Assembly (NCBI GenBank): GCA_035084275.1
Contig: CM068746.1
Location: 29,574,001 to 29,638,000, forward strand
Length of the DNA stretch: 64,000 nucleotides
Reading direction: 5' to 3'
Origin: Hydrolagus colliei
Taxonomy: Eukaryota
Shown: piece by piece, positions 7,138-49,764 of the stretch
How positions within the stretch are numbered: the stretch's first letter is position 1
Layout: each line of letters begins with the position of its first letter
Made by a program: the position numbers and the translations under genes
Notes under the pieces: model-generated
Told to the model about the DNA's origin: nothing
What the model saw: the letters and a program-made list of their open reading frames with translations, nothing else
Database searches by the model: none

Positions 7138-7694
7138 CATGATGGACCCAAGGCCAGTCAAGTAGCTTCAGAAAGACTGTCAGACCATCTCAGACGGAGA
7201 GATGTGATAACAAGCAATATGATGGGAGTCAGGTGGTTAAGGCCCAGGGTCATATGCAAAGTCGGAATCCAATTTAAAACTAGTTGCTTATTCAGTTTTA
7301 GTGAGGGGCAAATAAGCAACTCTGCTCCTTTTTTCCTCTGTCTGCTCCTACGCATGCTTAATATAGAGTCAACAGATACACAGTCACTATACGTTTATAA
7401 AATTGAGGTGCTTTGAGAGGTCTTGATATAATAATGTTTAACTCTACAAAAAGCTAAATTGCCTTTCTAAAGATTGAGACAATGCTTCAGCTTCAAGGGG
7501 AAATTGGGAGTCACTAATGCAAGGCTACACTGCTGATGTTCCAATCCCTTTTGTAAGAACAGCAAGTGAGATACTGTACATAGAATCATAGGGCACAAAA
7601 GGAGGCTATTTGGCCCATCGAGTCAGTGCCGGCTCTTCAAAAAGAGCAATTCAATCCCACTTCCCAGCTCTCTCCCCATAACCGCACAACCAGT

Positions 7695-8686
7695 CGATAT
7701 CGACATATATGCAGATGGCAGCACCTCTACCTTTCCGCTTCCACCCTCGACTCCACGACTACTAGAGTTCTGACTGCATGTCTGTCCGGTATTGAGTCCT
7801 GGACAAGGGTCAACCTCCTCCAACTAAACATCAACAAGACGGAGACCATCCTGATTGGCTCGCGTCAGCGCCTCCACACCTCAGGCATTGGCAACATCAA
7901 CATTCAAGGCTGCTCTCTCCACCTCTTGAAGCCAGTCAGGAATTTCGGCGTCTTGTTCGACCCCGAACTGTCCTTCCCTCCAAACTCCGCGCCAGGACTG
8001 GTACAGCCTTCCATCACCTCCGCAACATTACCAGACTCCGCCACTACCTCACCCACCATGCTGCCGAAACACTCATCCACGCATTCATCACATCTAGGCT
8101 CGACTATGCGTACTCTCTCCTCGTCAGCCTTCCCAGCTCCTCCCTTCACAAGCTGCAGATTTTTCAGAACTCTGCAGCTCGTATATGTACTCTTCTGCAC
8201 TAGGCTCCGCGACCACATCACTCCCACCCTCGCCTATCTCCACTGGCTACCCATCTCCCAAAGGGTCGAATTGAAGATCTTCGTCCTCACTTTCAAGGCC
8301 ATTCATGGACTTGCCTCCGCCTATCTCTCCGACCTGCTGTCTTCCTATCAGCCTGCCCACCCCCTCCGTTCAACGGGCTCTGGCCTGCTCCACGTCCCCC
8401 GCCCAAACCGCCCTACCATCGATGGTCGGCTTTCAGCCTCTTTGCCCCCATTCTGGAACTCCATCCCGCAATCCCTTCGCCTCGCTTCCTCTCTTTTCTC
8501 CTTTAAGGCCGGTCTCAAGACCTTCCTCTTCCGTGCCTTCTGCTCTCCTCCTAACTCTCCCCTCTCCTATTCTCCTTCCCCCTACCCCAACGCCCCCATC
8601 AATCAGGTCCTGACCTAACTGTTCAGCACCTTGGGACGTCCTCCCGACGTGAAAGGCACTCTATAAATTTTATTTTGTTGTTGTTG
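7695..8686 (+). mobile_element. L2-type LINE 3' fragment (end of reverse-transcriptase ORF2, 3' stem-loop, (TTG)n tail)
   Basis: Frameshifted ORF2 motifs (degenerate YADD, LQLNINKTE, RDHITPTLAYLHWLPI, FKAGLKTFLF); tail gggacgtcctcccgacgtgaaaggcact...ttgttgttg. Confidence 0.9.
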
Positions 8687-8709
8687 ATGTTCAACTGAAG
8701 AAAGTTAGC

Positions 8710-9890
8710 TCTCATCCAGGACTTGATGTCTGACAGGCATTCAAAACAGCAGTGGGCCTGGAGTCAAGGGTGGACGTAGAGAGATACAGTTGGGTGAAAT
8801 CCACATTGTCCTCATATCTGATGATGCCAGCAAGAGGGAACATGTAAATGTTGCCAAGAGGAGGGGACCAAGGACGGAGCTTTGAGGAACGCAGCACGAG
8901 ATGGTGTGGGGGCCAAAGGAGAAACCGTTTGTGGAAATGAAGTGGAGGCAGTGTGAGATGTACAAACTGAAGCATGAAAGTTGAGCTGAGAGGAGAGACA
9001 GTGGATGAGGATAGAGTGGTCAACGGTGTCGAAAGCAGTAGAGTGGTTAAGGAGGATGAGGAGGTAGAGGTAACCCTGGTTGCCGATGGACAGAATGTAA
9101 TTTGTCACTTTGATCAGAGCTGTTTCTGTGTTTTGGATGAGCCTCAGGCGAGACAGATTCATAGATGGTGCAGCACAGAAACGTAAATCCAGTCTGGCTG
9201 GTGACTCGACTCCATACAAGTGCTTTCCTAGATCCTACCCCTACAACAACTTACATTTGTATCAAGCATTTCACGTTAGAAGGATGTCTCAAGGTGCTTC
9301 ACTTCAGGGATTTGGACTGGAGCAAGGAGTTGGGATCAGTTGGGTTGGAGGGCAGCGATAGCAGGGTGTCCAAAGGCACAGTCGAAGGAGGGACTTGAGG
9401 TGGGACTTGAAGGAGGCACGAGAGGGAATAAAGTGAGGGGACTGACTGTGGGATGAAATTCCAAAGTGTGGGAGCGGAGAGGGTGAAGGCCCAACCACCG
9501 CTGAGGTGGGCGGGGATGTGGTGCAAGCAAAAGGAGGGGACAGATCAATATGGTGTTAGCAGGTCACAGAGGTAGGAAGGAGCAAGGCTATAGAGGGCTT
9601 TGAAAGCAAGGACAAAGATTTTGAACTATCCTGTGGGGGAATAGGGAATAAGTGGAGCTGTGTGAGGATGGGGATGATAAGGAGCCTGGAGTGGGAAAGA
9701 ACAGAAGCTGTGTTCTGAATGATCTGCTGCTTATGGAAAGAAGAGTTTCGAAAGGTTAACAAGCAGGGAATTGACATAGTCAAACCTGGATGTAATGAAA
9801 GCATATATGAAGGTCTCATTGGCCTGAAGGGAGAGGCAGTGGCCGAGCCAGACAATTTTGTGGAGGTGGGAGAAGGCAGAACGGGTCATT
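8710..9890 (-). mobile_element. Two decayed L2-type LINE fragments
   Basis: Minus-strand TETALIKVTN, AFDTVDH, SVLGPL and TQLY motifs at 8710-9140; a second 3' end with (CAA) tail starts near 9243. Confidence 0.8.
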
Positions 9891-13676: not shown

Positions 13677-14003
13677 CAATAATCCTTGCATTTGATATCG
13701 ATAGCAGCTTATTACACTGAATATAACATTAATTAAATGGACTATATTTTCTGGACCAAAGGTGCTTTGGCTAATTGTGCACAACAGTGTTTCACAAACA
13801 GTCGTCCATTGAGTGACCAAATTCTTATTTTTTTTTAAAAAAAGGATTATTACCACCAGAAAAGCAATTCTCCAATCCCGACTAACAAGTGGGTTCCTAC
13901 GTACTGCTAGGTAAACAGAGGCTTACGGAATAAGGAAACTTTCCCAACATTCTGCGCTGCCTGGGAATCAAACCCAGGTTATCTCACTAATCTACAGGAC
14001 TCC
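13677..14003 (-). mobile_element. tRNA-derived SINE (family A)
   Basis: Colinear with 6775-7137. Confidence 0.85.
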
Positions 14004-16588
14004 ACAATCCACAAGGAAGATAATAACATGCACAATTTTGAAGCTCAGACAACATCTAACCCAAACATCATTTTTGTTTAAAAAAACCTCAAGCAAACAG
14101 AATGTTCCAAAGTTGTCTGGGATTGGATCAAATTGTCATCTAAGTGTCACTAGTTGAGAATTGTTGTAACTTGAAATAAGTCATAAGTCTGATAAATACT
14201 GGATCCACTGACTAAAGTGTTTATTTTAATGTTTTTAATTTTTTTTAATGCTCTGACTGCAAATTCATGCTATGCGAATGATATTTAAAGAATGTTACAC
14301 ACATTTGGAGATGTACCCATTTTATCCATGTTTAAAGGGATTCTAGATAAAATGCCATATGGTTAAATGCTGGTAAAACCATTACACATAAATTGATTCT
14401 CGTTGAGAACTAAACTTGGTGTAAAATTGGTACCACAGTCAACAAAGGGTTAAGTTCCAAAGACACAACCAGGCGATTATGCAAGCTCTTCTTTTCTTTG
14501 AATCAATGTACTGTGATCCCACTTCTTTCTTCTTTCTCTATAAATTTTTCATATATTAATTTCTACAGTAACTTATCAATTCCCTTTTAAATCTGTTTTC
14601 ACTTGTCTTTCAGAGCCACTTGGTGCTATTGCAGATCTTAGAGAAAGTATTTAAAATATTTCCTGTAAATTGTCATGATCAGATCACAAAATGTATACAA
14701 CATGGTTTGATCACTGAAACCAAAAAAAGCGGAAGTAATTCAGCTTGGAATGCAAAATCTTACACTAAAACACTACAAAAGAAGAAAGTTAAAAACCATG
14801 ATCAGATGTATAATTTTTTTCACTTGCTTTTGTTGTACAGCAGAAATTGGAAAAAAAAACTATTTGATTCTATTGAAATATTATTTAAGTTCCTCAAAAT
14901 CCCGAAAAACAATTTTATGACACAATGTGAAACTGAGACCAGCGAACACAACAGAGTCAATGAACAAGCAGTTTTTAAAACTTGTGTTTCTAACATCACA
15001 AAGGGACATCCATTGTTTTGAAATTGTAAGGGAGATGATTGATGGAAATGGCAGTTCAGTCTTCAAATCTGTCCTTGAATTTAGGTCTTGAATCATTCTT
15101 ATCAGTACAGCTGCCTCCTCCAGAACAATGAACTCACCAACAAATTAGTCAATCGACAGTGAGTTTATCTTCCAAAAACATATCCTGGACGAGATTACAA
15201 GGTTTCTACTGAATCATAAAATTAAGGACCTTTGAAATTTGTTCTCTCAACAGTGATTCAAAATTTCAACAATAACTTTAGCTCGAAGCAGAATATCTGT
15301 AAATGGATGTAGATGGCCAGTTTCTTCAAGAGCACTGTGTTCTAACCTAATCCTGTTAACAATGGATTGTTGAAAGCCTAAGTGGCGTTAAAAATATATC
15401 AACTATTTTTCTCTGCCACCATCACTTTGACTGACGGATGAACTGAAGCGAGTACTCTGGCCCTTGGAACAGGCTGGAGGCTGTGAGTGCAATCATGCAA
15501 ACATGGATTTAAAAAAGTCAGAAAGTGTTCACCTGTTGGAAAAATAGATTGGTGAAGAAATAAAGAAACCTATTACCACAAACAAAAACTGCATTAAGTT
15601 AAAGAAATAAACAAAAAGCTAAAAGTAGCAAATGGCAATTTGTGAGATTTCAGGATTTCTGGACAATACAGGACTAAAATCATTTTCCCCCCACTCATAC
15701 CAATGATACTTTATACATCTGAGAAACACAATAAATCTGAAAGTACACTTTATGCCAAAAGGCTTGTTAGCTGTCAACTGCTTTCTTGTCATGTGGCCAA
15801 CCCAAAAAGTGTGAATACAGAGAAAACAGGGTTTTATTTACTGCATGCATTTTGTCATGGAGCAAAGGTTCAATTTCTCAAGCAAAGTAAAAAATCCCTG
15901 ACGGTTTCCTTGTTGCAACATGTCAGCAACAGTGGGGAGCTCCGGCAAATGGAAAATAAAGCACCGTGCAGATTTCCTAAACCACTGTCAATGTATTAAT
16001 TTGCACAAGTGCAGTTGCTTCTGTGCTAAAATAATAATAGTTGCCTTTGATATAGCACCTTTCATGTCAGGAGGACACCTCAAAGAGCTACTGCAAAATC
16101 CATTCACTGTATTTGTGGGTGAACGTGGCAACCAATTTGCACAGAGTAACAGCCTACAAACAGCCATGAAATGAAGGACCAATTTTGATGGGGAAGATTG
16201 GAAAGGAAAGATCACAATAGAGCAGACAAAATAAGCCTTTATTAATTTAAATGTCACTGAATTTGGCCTCAGCAGTGGGCAGTACCAGCACCACTTTTGA
16301 CATATATGCAAAGAAAAAAAAGTCACTCTTCTGAATAATGTCCAAATGCAATTTTTGTATAAGGAAATCTTCTGTGCTTCAACGAGTGTTCATATCTGAT
16401 GAGTTTACTCTAACACAAATGTATGCAACATGGCTGAATGGCTTTTCTCAAACACCGTCAGAACTCTAAATTAATGCACAGCTTGAAGTTGTATGAAAGC
16501 ATTTCTGATATGACAAATCATTCATGCATCCTCAACACAACTGCTTCAGTTTGTCAGCCACAAAATCTTTAATTATTGAGCTCCACAA

Positions 16589-16796
16589 NNNNNNNNNNNN
16601 NNNNNNNNNNNNNNNNNNNNNNNNNNNNNNNNNNNNNNNNNNNNNNNNNNNNNNNNNNNNNNNNNNNNNNNNNNNNNNNNNNNNNNNNNNNNNNNNNNNN
16701 NNNNNNNNNNNNNNNNNNNNNNNNNNNNNNNNNNNNNNNNNNNNNNNNNNNNNNNNNNNNNNNNNNNNNNNNNNNNNNNNNNNNNNNNNNNNNNNN
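16589..16796. other. Assembly gap (run of N)
   Basis: About 208 consecutive N. Confidence 0.99.
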
Positions 16797-16909
16797 TACC
16801 TGAATTAACTTACAGTAACTGGTTATGACATGTTGTGGGAAGAAATATTTATAGAGTTATGCCACTGTAATTGAGTGTGCATGCCTGCCTTTGTTGGTAA
16901 AATACTCAC

Positions 16910-16993
16910 ATGCTGCTTGGAGTGGATCTTGTAGGTCGTCCAGGGTGGCTTTTCGAGGTGGTGATGCTGACCGGTGGCTTTCCTTGGGATGGG
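16910..16993 (-). CDS. Candidate alternative (cassette) exon of YAF2, 84 nt, frame-preserving
   Basis: Acceptor ctcattacttgcaccctttccccattag and donor CAT|gtgagt. In phase 2 after exon 2 it reads (R)PSQGKPPVSITTSKSHPGRPTRSTPSS with no stop. GC-rich island in an AT-rich intron. Confidence 0.55.
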
Positions 16994-18362
16994 CTAATGG
17001 GGAAAGGGTGCAAGTAATGAGACATAAGAAAGTATTTAAATAGCAGTACTATTTTTGCTGCCCAAAACCGACTCGTGTCAGAACTGTGTTGCCACCCATA
17101 AACATGCTAAATTAAACCAAATCTGACTAAGAGCATGACAGAGCTTGTCTGAAAACTGATGTGTTGCAACTTGGCATTTCCTTCCATGGTATGGAGATTC
17201 AATAGACAATACAAAATAAAAATCCTTCATTTGATTTTGCACTATATCACACTGAAATATCTCAAACTGCTTTTTTTTCTGGTAAGTATAATGACTATAT
17301 TTGTAAGCTAAATTGTGTTTATGTTTATCGTCACTTAAATTTTCAAACAAAATTTTAAAGGCAAGTGTTCTGAGTTGCATTGTAGATCATCAATGGTGCT
17401 CTAGAATTATGTTTGTTCAGAGTTTGGCCAATCTGGAGTTTTATCTTTTGGAATAGACAGTAAAATATTGTTTACCATATTCTTTTGCAAAATCATTTTA
17501 AAATGACAAATACAAAAATGAAAGATGTAAATGGCAGTGCAATTAAAAATAAATTAGGTGAATATAATCCAGTAACTGAAATTAACTCAACCTGTTCAAA
17601 AATTGTGCAATTAGATTGGAAAGGTCCCAAGTTCAAGCAAGTTACTCATCTCACTCAGGGCAGATTGATTCTTCTCTGCATTCCTACATTATTTTGTGGT
17701 CAGTTGGGTATCTGAAACCCATCATCATGCCTTCGAGTATTGAAACTAGAGTTCCAATGCATCCCACCTGTACATGGAATTTCCAGGTATGTTTATTGGA
17801 ATGGAATGTGCACTCTCTCTCTGGAGGGATACATCAAGGAGGGCAACAAATAAAAGAGTTCCTGTTTTTTATCTATGCCGTACTTAATAACTTGTTTTAG
17901 AAAGCATGCATCAGGATATTGGGCAAGAACAGGTTTGGCACTTTACTGCCATCTTCACGTTGATCTGTCGCCTTACACCAAAAAATGGTTGGGAAATACA
18001 CCACAAAGAGTGCCAATAGAACTAGAGCCCCTCACGAGTTATCATTGTGAAGAAAGATAGTACACAGAACTTTACTTCAGACTTGGCGCAAAGATTAGGG
18101 GTAGTTGTTGAACCAGGTGCAAAAGAGCCCCCATTTCTGATTCACAAACTTCGCTTCAAAAAAGCTTCTATTCATTTTAGATTTTTTGCGGGGGATGGGA
18201 AGAGAAGAGGGACACACAACATTACTTCTGTTGCAGTGATATAATAACAGTTAAGATACATAACAAAATTGGAAGATGGTATATATTTTTTCATGCATAT
18301 ATAAATGTTGTCAACTGGTCTGCCATCGTCAAGATTTGGTTGGGGATATACTTAGCTCCAAT

Positions 18363-18748
18363 TAGGGTCCGTCGATATGGAAATTTTCCGATAGCGATAT
18401 ATCGGTGGGCTCATTTCGATATATACCGATATATCAATATTTCCGGGGTTTTATATACTGCGCATGCGCGCACATTCGGAGATGCACGCGCATTCCGGTG
18501 TGTGCGCGCATTCCGGGCTCTAGGCCCAGGAGGTTTGCAATGCCGGCGACAAGGTAAATTGAAAAAGTTCACATTATACCGATATAACCCATATATCGAT
18601 ATATCACCAGATATGATAAACCGATATTTGCGATATACCGATTTTTTTTATACTGAATTTTTCGATATACCTATATATTTAAATTTCCAATATCAGCATA
18701 TCAATATGAAAAATGATATCGATATAACCGATATATCGATGGACACTA
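18363..18748. mobile_element. hAT(Ac)-type MITE
   Basis: TIRs TAGGGTCCGTCGATAT / ATATCGATGGACACTA; perfect 8-bp TSD gctccaat; many subterminal CGATAT motifs. Confidence 0.92.
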
Positions 18749-18909
18749 GCTCCAATCATGTAAATATCGCACTTTAAACAACTCGGTGAGAATAAAAATA
18801 TTCTTGAAGTGTAATAGACTTCAAATCTTTAAATGGTAAACTGTTACGTGCTAAAATGTAACACAGTCATGGCAGAACATCTGCATGGGTAACACAAGTC
18901 CAAAACTCT

Positions 18910-19365
18910 GTTGCGCGCATACTATCCCAGTCCTTGCCAGACTTCACTGGCTGCCTATCCCAGGGAGGATCAACTTCAAGATCCTCACCCTTGTCTTCAC
19001 TTGTCCTCCACTCCTCTGCACCCCCCTACCTCTCTGACATCCTCTCTCCCTCAAACCAGCTCCTGTTGCCTTCGCTCCACTGGATCTGGCCTCCTCCATG
19101 TCCCCCGAATCCTCCGCTCCACCCTCGGCGGCCGTGCCTTCAGCCACTATGCCCCGAGGCTCTGGAATTCCCTTCCTGACTCCTTCGTCCTGCCTCCTCT
19201 TTTCTCAGTTTCAGGTCCCAGCTGAAGACCTTTCTCTTTCACCGCGCCATTGGTCACCTTTCTACCCCTGCCCCTGGCTCGGTTCCGGGATCCACTATTG
19301 TGAAGCGCTCTGAGACACCGTCCGGTGTGGAGGGTGCTGTATAAATCGAAGTTGTTGTTGTTGTT
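18910..19365 (+). mobile_element. L2-type LINE 3' end, second subfamily
   Basis: LRSTGSGLLHVPR...GGRAFSHYAPRLWNSLP; distinct tail (gaagcgctctgagacaccgtccggtgtggagggtgctgtataaatcgaagttgttgttg), shared with 55215-55562. Confidence 0.85.
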
Positions 19366-31538: not shown

Positions 31539-32175
31539 AACAACAACAACAAAATTACATTTATTTGAGAGCCTTTCACATCAGGGGTGATGTCCCAAGG
31601 CACTGAACAGTCAGGACCGGACTCGAACAAGGGAGAGGGGCAGGGTAGGGGGGAGGGGCGGGAGAGAGTTCAGAGGGCAGCAGAAGGCACGGTTGAACAG
31701 TAGGTGCTTGAGACCAGGCTTGAAGGAGGTGAGGAGGCAGCATGGCGAAGGGATCGTGGGATGGAGTTCCAGAGTGTGGGGGCAGTGAGGCTGAAAGCCC
31801 GTCTGCCGATGGTAGGGCGGGTCGGGCGGGGGACATGGAGCAGGCCGGAGCCCGCTGATTGGAGTGGGCGGTGAGGTTCATAGGGGGCAAGGCCATGAAT
31901 GGTCTTGAAGGTGAGGACGAGGATCTTGAATTCGATCCTCGGGGGATGGGGAACCAATAGAGCCAGAGAGAGTGAGAGTGATGTGGTTGCAGTGCTTGGT
32001 ACGGGTGAGAATATGAGCTGCAGAGTTCTGGATGATCTGCAGCTTGTGAAGGGAAGAACCAGGAAGGCCGATGAGGAGGGAATTTCCGTAGTCGTGCCTT
32101 GACGTGATGAATGAATGGACGAGGGGTTTGGGAGCCTGAGGGGTAAGGCAGTGGCAGACTCTGGCGATGTTGCGA
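31539..32175 (-). mobile_element. L2-type LINE 3' fragment
   Basis: HKLQIIQNSAA, RIEFKILVLTFKTIHGLAP and RRAFSLTAPTLWNSIP motifs; (CAA)n tail at 31539-31552. Confidence 0.9.
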
Positions 32176-32244
32176 TGCAACACAAAATATCAACCAGTAA
32201 AAGTTCACAAGACAATCAATAAGAAATTTTAATTTTACAATTAC

Positions 32245-32585
32245 TTCAAAGCCCTCCCTCCATACCTCTGTGGCCTGCAAAGCCCATATCACCTGCCCAC
32301 TCCCTCTGCTCAGCAGCCTGCTTCACGTCCAACCGCCCTACAATCAGCGGTTGGACTTTCCATTCAGCACCCCATTCTGTTTGCCTTGCTCCCTCCCTTG
32401 TCTCCTTCTAGGCACGTCTCAAGACCATTCTCTTTCATCACGCCTTCGGCAACTTCCTACTCTCCCTATCCTCAACGCTCACTGATTCCCACTCCCAACC
32501 ACTCGGGTCTAAATCCCTGACTGTGCAGTGGCTTGGGACATCCTCCCGACATGAAAGGCGTTATACAAATGTAATTTTGTATTGT
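32245..32585 (+). mobile_element. L2-type LINE 3' end
   Basis: Same 3' tail motif (cttgggacatcctcccgacatgaaaggcgttatacaaatgtaattttgt). Confidence 0.8.
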
Positions 32586-34644: not shown

Positions 34645-35400
34645 TGTGGTAAAGTCAGTCAGGAACCTAGGTATCCTGCTCGATCCTCAATGGTCTTTCC
34701 TCCCCTACATCCAAGCCATGACCCACTCTGCTATCTGTCATTCCGTAATATTGCCTAAATCTACCACTATCTCACCCCTCATGCACTGAAACTCATTCAT
34801 GCCTTTAACACATCCCGGCTTGACTATGCCAATACCCTCCCTTACCAATTCCTCCCTCCATAGGCTGCAGATAAACTAGAACACTGTGACCTGTGTCCTC
34901 TACCACTCCAAATTTCTTGACCCCCATCTCCCTCATCCTCGCCTGACTCCCTTGGCTCCCCAGCACCCAGAGGATTCAATGCAAGATCCTGGTCCTCACA
35001 TTCAAAGCCCTCCATGGCTTCGCCCCACCTTACCTCTGCGATCTCCTAACCACCCCCTACCAACCTGCCCGCCCCCTCCGCTCAGCAGGCTCCGGCCTGC
35101 TCCACGTCCCCCAACCCACCTACCCCACCATTGGCGGGAAAGCCTTCAGCCACTCTGCCCCCAACTTCTGGAACTCCATCACACAGTCCCTCCGCCTCGC
35201 CTCCTCCCTAGACTCCTTGAAGTCCCGCCTCAAGACCCTCCTCTTCGATGGTCCCATCGGTCACCCCAAACTCCCCCCTTTCCCTCCACCATCACTGAAC
35301 CCGATCCCAGCTCGGGTCTGAAACAATGACTTTCCAGCAAGTGGGACATTCTCCTGATGTCAAAGGCGCTATACAAGCATAATTTTGCTCTTGTTGTTGT
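34645..35400 (+). mobile_element. L2-type LINE 3' fragment
   Basis: VRNLGILLDP motif, homologous 3' region, tail ending ttgttgtt. Confidence 0.85.
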
Positions 35401-42465: not shown

Positions 42466-43262
42466 ATAATAATAATCCTTGCATTTGATATTGCGCTTTT
42501 CACGTCTTCTTAGACTTCTCAAAGCACATCACAAAATACAACAACAACAAAATAACACTTATAGAGCGCCTTTCACGTCGGGAGGACGTTGCAAGGTGCT
42601 GAATAGTCAGACTGGACCCAAGCGAGGAAGAGGGGCCGGATGGAGAGGTAGTGGCGAGAGAGAGTTGGGAGGGGGGAGTGGGGGAGAGAGTTGGGAGGGC
42701 AGCAGAAGCCACGATCGAAGAGGAGGATCTTGTGACTGGCCTTGAAGGAGGCAAGGGACAAAGTGAGGCGAAGGGACTGTGGAATGGAGTTCCAGAGTGT
42801 GGAGGAAGAGAGGCTGAAAGCCCACCCGTTAACGGTAGGGCGGGTTGGGCAGGGGACATGGAGGAGACTGGAGCCCACTGAACGGAAGGGGTGGGCAGGT
42901 TCATAGGGATAGAGCAGGTCAGAGAGATAGGAGGGGGGAAAGGCCGTGAATGGCCTTTCAAAGTGAGGATGAGGATCTTGAATTCGAGCCTTGAAAGTGA
43001 AAACAAGGATCTTGAATTCAAATATACTGTAAAGTGAATTGACTGTATATTTGTGGGCGAAACATGGCAGCCAATCGTGCACTGACTGCAGTGTCCCACA
43101 AACAGTTGTGGATTGAGTGACCAAATTATTACAGTATTTTTTGAGGGATTACTTTCAGACATATGGAGTAAGGAAACTTGCCCAAGCTTTTGCCCTGCCT
43201 TGAATCAAACCCAGGTCTCCCGCATGCAAAACGACTGCTCTAACCACTGAGCTACAGGAATC
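42466..43262 (-). mobile_element. SINE family A, split by an L2 insertion
   Basis: Tail at 42466-42539, body and head at 43021-43262. Confidence 0.85.
42540..43020 (-). mobile_element. L2-type LINE 3' fragment inserted inside a SINE
   Basis: (CAA)n tail at 42540; EFKILILT and WAFSLSSSTLWNSIP motifs; flanked on both sides by colinear SINE sequence. Confidence 0.85.
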
Positions 43263-49103: not shown

Positions 49104-49229
49104 CGTGTTGATGTGCCCTTCCTGACATCACACATACTGCATTTGAAAGCCTCTGCGCTGTTCCTGAATGTGCAAACACTACAGTCCCAGTATCCTTCGT
49201 CTGGTGAAGGCTTCGGCTGCCTTTTGGGT
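49104..49229 (-). CDS. YAF2: YAF2 coding exon 2, RanBP2-type zinc finger
   Basis: aaacag|A CCC AAA...ACA CG|gtgag; 126 nt; translates [43 protein letters not shown] (W-x-C-x2-C-x3-N-x6-C-x2-C). Phase is consistent with exon 1. Confidence 0.97.
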
Positions 49230-49586: not shown

Positions 49587-49738
49587 GTAATGTAACGAGC
49601 CCGGCCGCCATGGTTGCTACATTGTATGAAGCTTCCAACACTGCCTGCCTTTGCTCCAGCCCCTACACTCGGAAATTGCACAATTAAAACCTTGAAAGAG
49701 ACGCGTTTTTTTCGCCTGGAGGTTTGAAAGCACTCTAC

Positions 49739-49764
49739 CTGGTCGGGCTCTTCTTGTCTCCCAT
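49739..49764 (-). CDS. YAF2: YAF2 coding exon 1 (MGDKKSPT + AG of split Arg codon)
   Basis: Reverse complement reads ATG GGA GAC AAG AAG AGC CCG ACC AG|gtagag, matching the known YAF2 N-terminus MGDKKSPTR. 26 coding nt, GT donor at 49737-49738. Confidence 0.96.

Follow-up and report, generated by a model that had tools for sequence, protein, structure and literature searches.

A closely related described system is RYBP within variant PRC1 (PDB 8pp6, 9dby), in which the zinc finger, the loop, the helix and the RING1B-binding motif are shared with YAF2; the structures found with the loop in context are of RYBP only, and none is of YAF2. According to the accessible sections of a cryo-EM study (PMC11257959), RYBP residues 47-58 run as a loop over the acidic patch of H2A, in which R47, R53 and R56 are central; R53 is well resolved, while R47 and R56 are less so, the density for R56 being weak. 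The same sections report that the R47A/R53A/R56A mutant binds ubiquitinated nucleosomes several-fold more weakly and that its H2A ubiquitination is severely cut, including on arrays. In the available part of a preprint (bioRxiv 10.64898/2026.02.20.706939), the helix spanning RYBP residues 57-70 touches ubiquitin and its deletion lowers activity modestly, and mutations at residues 51-53 impair activity. YAF2 is described, in the portions seen of two further papers, as also stimulating PCGF1-RING1B (PMC5065315), and as competing with RYBP and rising in mouse neural differentiation (PMC10630410). According to the part available of a single-molecule study (PMC12094234), PRC1.1 does not reside significantly longer on chromatin that is ubiquitinated.

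The window analysed here, i.e., the whole 64-kb stretch of Hydrolagus colliei DNA, contains the 5' portion of YAF2 on its minus strand. An original prediction, made from the letters alone, had proposed a hidden, frame-preserving cassette exon between exons 2 and 3 of this gene, which is referred to below as exon 2b. The features on which the analysis rests are as follows.

49739..49764, minus strand: YAF2 exon 1, coding part, from the start codon to a phase-2 donor at 49738
49104..49229, minus strand: YAF2 exon 2, 126 nt, encoding the zinc finger (RanBP2/NZF) and the N-terminal half of the acidic-patch loop
35965..36006, minus strand: cassette exon 2a, 42 nt, phase 2-2, 14 residues added, from the splice scan
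16994..17021, minus strand: acceptor region of exon 2b, with a branch-point-like CTCAT, a pyrimidine tract and TAG, read from the sequence (branch point itself putative)
16910..16993, minus strand: cassette exon 2b, 84 nt, phase 2-2, 28 residues added
16904..16909, minus strand: donor GTGAGT of exon 2b, from the sequence, the splice scan and the contigs of organism A
16880..16884, minus strand: GCATG core beginning 25 nt past exon 2b, putative role
16800..17267, minus strand: intron flank and exon block alignable to DNA of organism A, from contig comparison

Exon 2 ends in phase 2, within the codon of R51, and its peptide matches PF00641 and is 93-98% identical to YAF2 proteins, thus placing a zinc finger of the YAF2/RYBP family in the window. 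Exon 3 lies outside the 64-kb window, as does the RING1B-binding motif (PF17219), which is present in the Callorhinchus milii isoforms whose insert is identical to exon 2b.

Several other segments of the locus were recorded. Between exons 1 and 2, the minus-strand segment 49632-49600 matches an alternative start of several shark isoforms and has GC, not GT, where a donor would be expected. Just inside intron 2, three strong acceptors and one strong donor (48992-48808, minus strand) define segments of 185, 139 and 110 nt, all of them frame-shifting, and form a possible poison exon. The minus-strand segment 15332-15279, 1.6 kb beyond exon 2b, aligns with the N-terminal stretch of isoform X5 of YAF2 in C. 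milii at 17 of 19 residues with one gap; no clear donor was seen for it in the window, and it is perhaps an internal first exon of a YAF2 form that would do without the zinc finger. A 208-N assembly gap occupies 16589-16796, starting 113 nt beyond the exon 2b donor. Roughly 21% of the sequence recurs elsewhere in the window, and decayed copies at 7584-9885, 18862-19225, 31576-32322, 34880-35329 and 42500-43204 resemble the ends of LINE reverse transcriptases.

The sequence of exon 2b agrees with the original prediction: the 84-nt segment 16993-16910 is preceded by CTCAT (17021-17017), a pyrimidine tract and TAG, is followed by GTGAGT, has a GC content of 57% and is stop-free in all three minus-strand frames. 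The predicted number of 28 added residues holds as well, whereas their boundaries shift, since the insert starts at a Pro and ends at a Met whose codon is formed at the exon 3 junction, and the Arg that had been placed at its head is common to all isoforms. A stretch of 49,103 nt of intron was scanned with approximate splice-site matrices for acceptor-donor pairs 30-250 nt apart. Eight pairs score at least as well as exon 2b, and two of these eight are in frame without a stop, namely exon 2b itself and 36006-35965; the antisense control yields none among ten. Both in-frame candidates later matched annotated exons, and a chance pseudo-exon was rejected. A match to a repeat family, which had been named as evidence that would speak against the exon, was not seen in the within-window comparison, in which the segment has neither a second copy in the 64 kb nor a tandem array, and a repeat-derived pseudo-exon was likewise set aside. 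No Rfam match was found within 14000-19000, and exon 2b with its flanks folds as RNA no better than shuffled sequences (z 0.85).

Use of the two splice sites is observed in a related organism, referred to as organism A. Ten small RNA-like runs, all from organism A and with their RNA status guessed, contain three of four sampled words, and three contigs were obtained from one of the three such runs examined, X7; the other two, X1 and X3, yielded none despite containing the words, which can result from filtering and counts neither way. The first covers 16909-16994 and continues into sequence whose translation is the beginning of exon 3; the second covers 16965-16995 and continues into letters that match exon 2a at 27 of 28 positions when compared by eye; the third is unspliced upstream intron. 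The contigs of X7 depart from the window exactly at the AG and GT of exon 2b, while a DNA run of organism A (X12) reads on through both sites. The joining of exon 2b to exon 3 that the proposed junction check called for is thus present in the related organism's run, as is a joining to exon 2a; a direct exon 2-2b junction is not among the X7 contigs, nor is the exon 2-3 junction of the skipped form, which is known from annotation. The main contig starts one base before exon 2b and stops 30 bases into exon 3. Because assembly logic with 31-letter words expects such ends where paths meet, we infer that further paths join at both of them, i.e., direct entry from exon 2 at the one and, at exon 3, either the skipped form or intron left unspliced. 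Word depth in X7, a weak measure, is 21 for the exon contig and 2.5 for the contig of unspliced intron. As regards the conservation of the splice sites, organism A has no listed difference over 16994-17021, and X12 spans both sites; across the alignable block, seven differences fall in 16800-16993 and 30 in 16968-17267 (approximately 90-94% alike).

Public gene models had already made the existence of exon 2b known, so that the word "hidden" does not apply: NCBI models of YAF2 isoforms contain the exon in 17 species. A search with the exon 2 peptide returned 882 proteins, of which the best 120 were examined for the stretch that separates the finger from exon 3; the exon 2b peptide occurs in 19 of these 120 matches, all chondrichthyan, and at 24-27 of 27 identical residues in 53 of 318 proteins compared. 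The isoforms among the matches listed come from 17 named species (one chimaera, 12 sharks, three skates and one sawfish), for 11 of which the annotation has a form with the exon and one that skips it. In C. milii, isoform X2 (XP_042191055.1, 210 residues; also in UniRef as V9LA14) carries the exon 2b peptide with 27/27 identity, X4 (XP_042191058.1, 182 residues) carries neither cassette, and X1 (XP_042191054.1, 224 residues) carries both, each identical to the H. colliei peptide of the window. The 13/13 identity of the exon 2a peptide with the X1 insert makes exon 2a, which a long pyrimidine tract precedes and which the original prediction lacked, a second YAF2 cassette, and the two cassettes in combination allow insert lengths of 0, 14, 28 or 42 residues. 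The YAF2 models of C. milii, sharks, skates and sawfish have the same exons and junctions as the window, and exon 2 of C. milii differs from that of the window by one residue (98% identity), although both inserts are identical. These are automated gene models to which no function is attached. With the annotated isoforms and the junction contigs, the proposal of a YAF2 exon that lies between exons 2 and 3, preserves the frame and is alternatively spliced is borne out, and that exon 2b is a real exon of the gene is virtually certain.

An exon 2b isoform is not listed for five of 22 named chondrichthyans (Narcine, Hypanus, Hemitrygon, Mobula and Rhincodon), which could reflect loss or thin RNA sampling. 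Isoform X1 has no insert in Hypanus, Hemitrygon and Mobula, whereas in Narcine it has exon 2a alone (P0131, P0133, P0171), a pattern in which stepwise cassette loss in some rays is possible. In two sharks (P0059, P0126), exon 2b is followed by an additional in-frame segment in which six consecutive residues are shared, which suggests a third YAF2 cassette in these animals; no match to this segment was seen in the part of the window search listed. The homologue searches used regions of the longer isoforms, the 27-residue peptide being too short as a direct query, and gave 26 of 27 and 26 of 175 candidates, chondrichthyan without exception; since they depend on shared five-residue words, an orthologue that has diverged could escape them. 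A search free of this requirement gave 539 family representatives, of which the best 150 were examined, 139 of them new: among these 139, no similarity to exon 2b exceeds chance (best shuffle p 0.06), and the one match to exon 2a is a skate protein. Outside cartilaginous fishes, these searches gave no match to the exon 2b peptide, and the open-licence literature searched yielded no paper on these YAF2 exons.

Cassette exons that RBFOX proteins activate in neural or muscle tissue lie between conserved intron flanks, with a GCATG core downstream, and the usual RBFOX hexamer has a leading T before that core. Exon 2b resembles them in its conserved intron flanks and its downstream core, and differs from them in that the core is single and preceded by G. 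The position claimed for the motif, about 25 nt downstream, is correct, and the core is unchanged at 16884 in organism A, where the flank is approximately 94% alike overall; the 49 kb of intron contain 42 such cores, which amounts to a chance of about 1 in 12 per 100 nt. The suggestion of neural or muscle control by RBFOX, resting on a motif that lacks its leading T, found no support.

The value of this locus lies not in the existence of the exon, which is no discovery, but in its position inside the loop by which, in recent structures, variant PRC1 is anchored on ubiquitinated nucleosomes, a loop on which it and exon 2a may act. YAF2 residues 1-52 align to residues 3-54 of human RYBP, with the first residue of exon 3 at the equivalent of RYBP K54, so that the insertion point corresponds to RYBP R53|K54 (YAF2 R51|K52). 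By this alignment, the cassette junction falls inside the acidic-patch-binding loop (RYBP 47-58) rather than in a neutral linker, a point absent from the original prediction. Among 84 family representatives with the first half of the junction-spanning motif, 56 have the motif uninterrupted, amphioxus included. Upon inclusion, R45 and R51 are kept, the position of the R56 equivalent (YAF2 R54) becomes Gln or Tyr, and the helix corresponding to RYBP 57-70 is displaced, while the RING1B-binding motif is untouched.

By analogy with RYBP, we propose, at a probability of roughly 0.5, that inclusion of exon 2b weakens the docking of variant PRC1 by YAF2 on H2A-ubiquitinated nucleosomes. R45 and R51 would stay beside the zinc finger, R54 and the helix would move 14, 28 or 42 residues away, and this displacement would lower affinity and reduce the read-write spreading of H2A ubiquitin. 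With its RING1B-binding motif intact, the long form would remain able to join PRC1, where it would compete with RYBP as a weaker reader of ubiquitinated H2A; the residues inserted by exons 2a and 2b, placed in a stretch likely to grip nucleosomes, may in this way tune gene silencing. Against weakened docking, the best-resolved contact, the R53 equivalent, is kept on inclusion, and the weak R56 density and the modest effect of helix deletion in RYBP would, on the same analogy, also count against it. Both inserts start with P-x-x-G-[R/K], which places a basic residue two positions after the lost arginine, and this residue may compensate for it. The single-molecule result, as far as that source was available (PMC12094234), likewise counts against weakened docking on ubiquitinated chromatin. 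An AlphaFold2 model of the 224-residue isoform has a mean pLDDT of 46, with even the finger unfolded, and is uninformative between mechanisms.

The insert could instead act through length, as a longer flexible link between the finger and the RING1B-binding motif that would give reach to distant nucleosomes and make YAF2 RYBP-like. The predicted lengthening is present: the spacing from R51 to that motif is 51 residues without an insert and 65, 79 or 93 in the other three isoforms, the last close to the 92 of sheep RYBP and the 90 of amphioxus, and 37 insert-free representatives comprise 16 at 40-58, 18 at 90-109 and three longer. Such reach is required by the read-write model, according to the sections seen of PMC11257959. 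This match was, however, noticed post hoc, the form with 28 extra residues (79) belongs to neither spacing group, and the extra length of RYBP sits after the helix, not inside the loop; we regard an action mainly as a tether as unlikely. Nor does a pure spacer need the conservation found: between C. milii and eight elasmobranch isoforms, the exon 2b peptide is 94% identical, compared with 73% for exon 2a and 87-100% for the constitutive parts, and it exceeds the constitutive K/E linker.

The same conservation, near-invariant in chimaera, sharks and skates, would suit a new docking or phosphorylation module that serves a lineage-specific partner or kinase control and affects nucleosome binding little, as would a composition of 11 Ser/Thr, six Pro and four Lys/Arg without an acidic residue among 28. 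We consider this slightly less likely still, since no Pfam family covers the insert and its sole Thr-Pro site is Asn-Pro in most species; we know of no binding partner of the insert. Splicing signals within the exon could also explain part of its conservation, and the isoform might be a minor, near-neutral splice form with a functionless peptide, kept by RNA-level signals or by slow evolution in cartilaginous fishes, where the entire YAF2 protein is highly conserved. The many unrelated inserts annotated at the same junction in other vertebrates, and the five of 22 chondrichthyans for which no exon 2b isoform is listed, fit such a form. The preservation of the frame and of 24-27 of 27 residues in 17 species, an identity above that of the K/E linker, the UniRef entry for C. 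milii X2 and, as a weak measure, the X7 depth contrast speak against it and render it decidedly improbable. Weakened docking remains our preferred reading. A broader version of it, in which the two cassettes, ancient in cartilaginous fishes, form a graded splicing dial on the Polycomb read-write loop, with both together restoring RYBP-like spacing and mammals having evolved an exon of their own, is tentative and somewhat doubtful; if true, splicing at R51|K52 would be a recurrent control over the spreading of H2A ubiquitin.

Among known systems, a parallel is seen in mammals, where R51 and K52 are likewise separated in 204-residue YAF2 isoforms (P0073, P0121) by a 24-residue in-frame insert, which also removes the R56 equivalent, like the chondrichthyan inserts, and raises the same question. 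It differs from exons 2a and 2b in length and has no detectable similarity to either: in peptide-level comparisons with five placental sequences, shuffle p values range from 0.05 to 0.96 for exon 2b and from 0.14 to 0.92 for exon 2a. The mammalian insert is likely an independent exon, and the link that had been drawn to mammalian isoforms at this junction does not extend to their sequence. Seventeen same-junction inserts from mammals, reptiles, birds and sturgeon look unrelated to both cassettes, the two at p 0.04 for exon 2b being expected from the number of tests. Homology of exon 2b to the mammalian insert or to the 139 further representatives was rejected on these shuffle comparisons. RYBP retains an unbroken loop and has its extra length downstream, after the helix, unlike cassette-bearing YAF2. 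Natural isoforms that differ only at this loop allow a test of whether splicing tunes Polycomb feedback, and the difference between RYBP and YAF2, insofar as it acts through tether length, is testable with the same isoforms.
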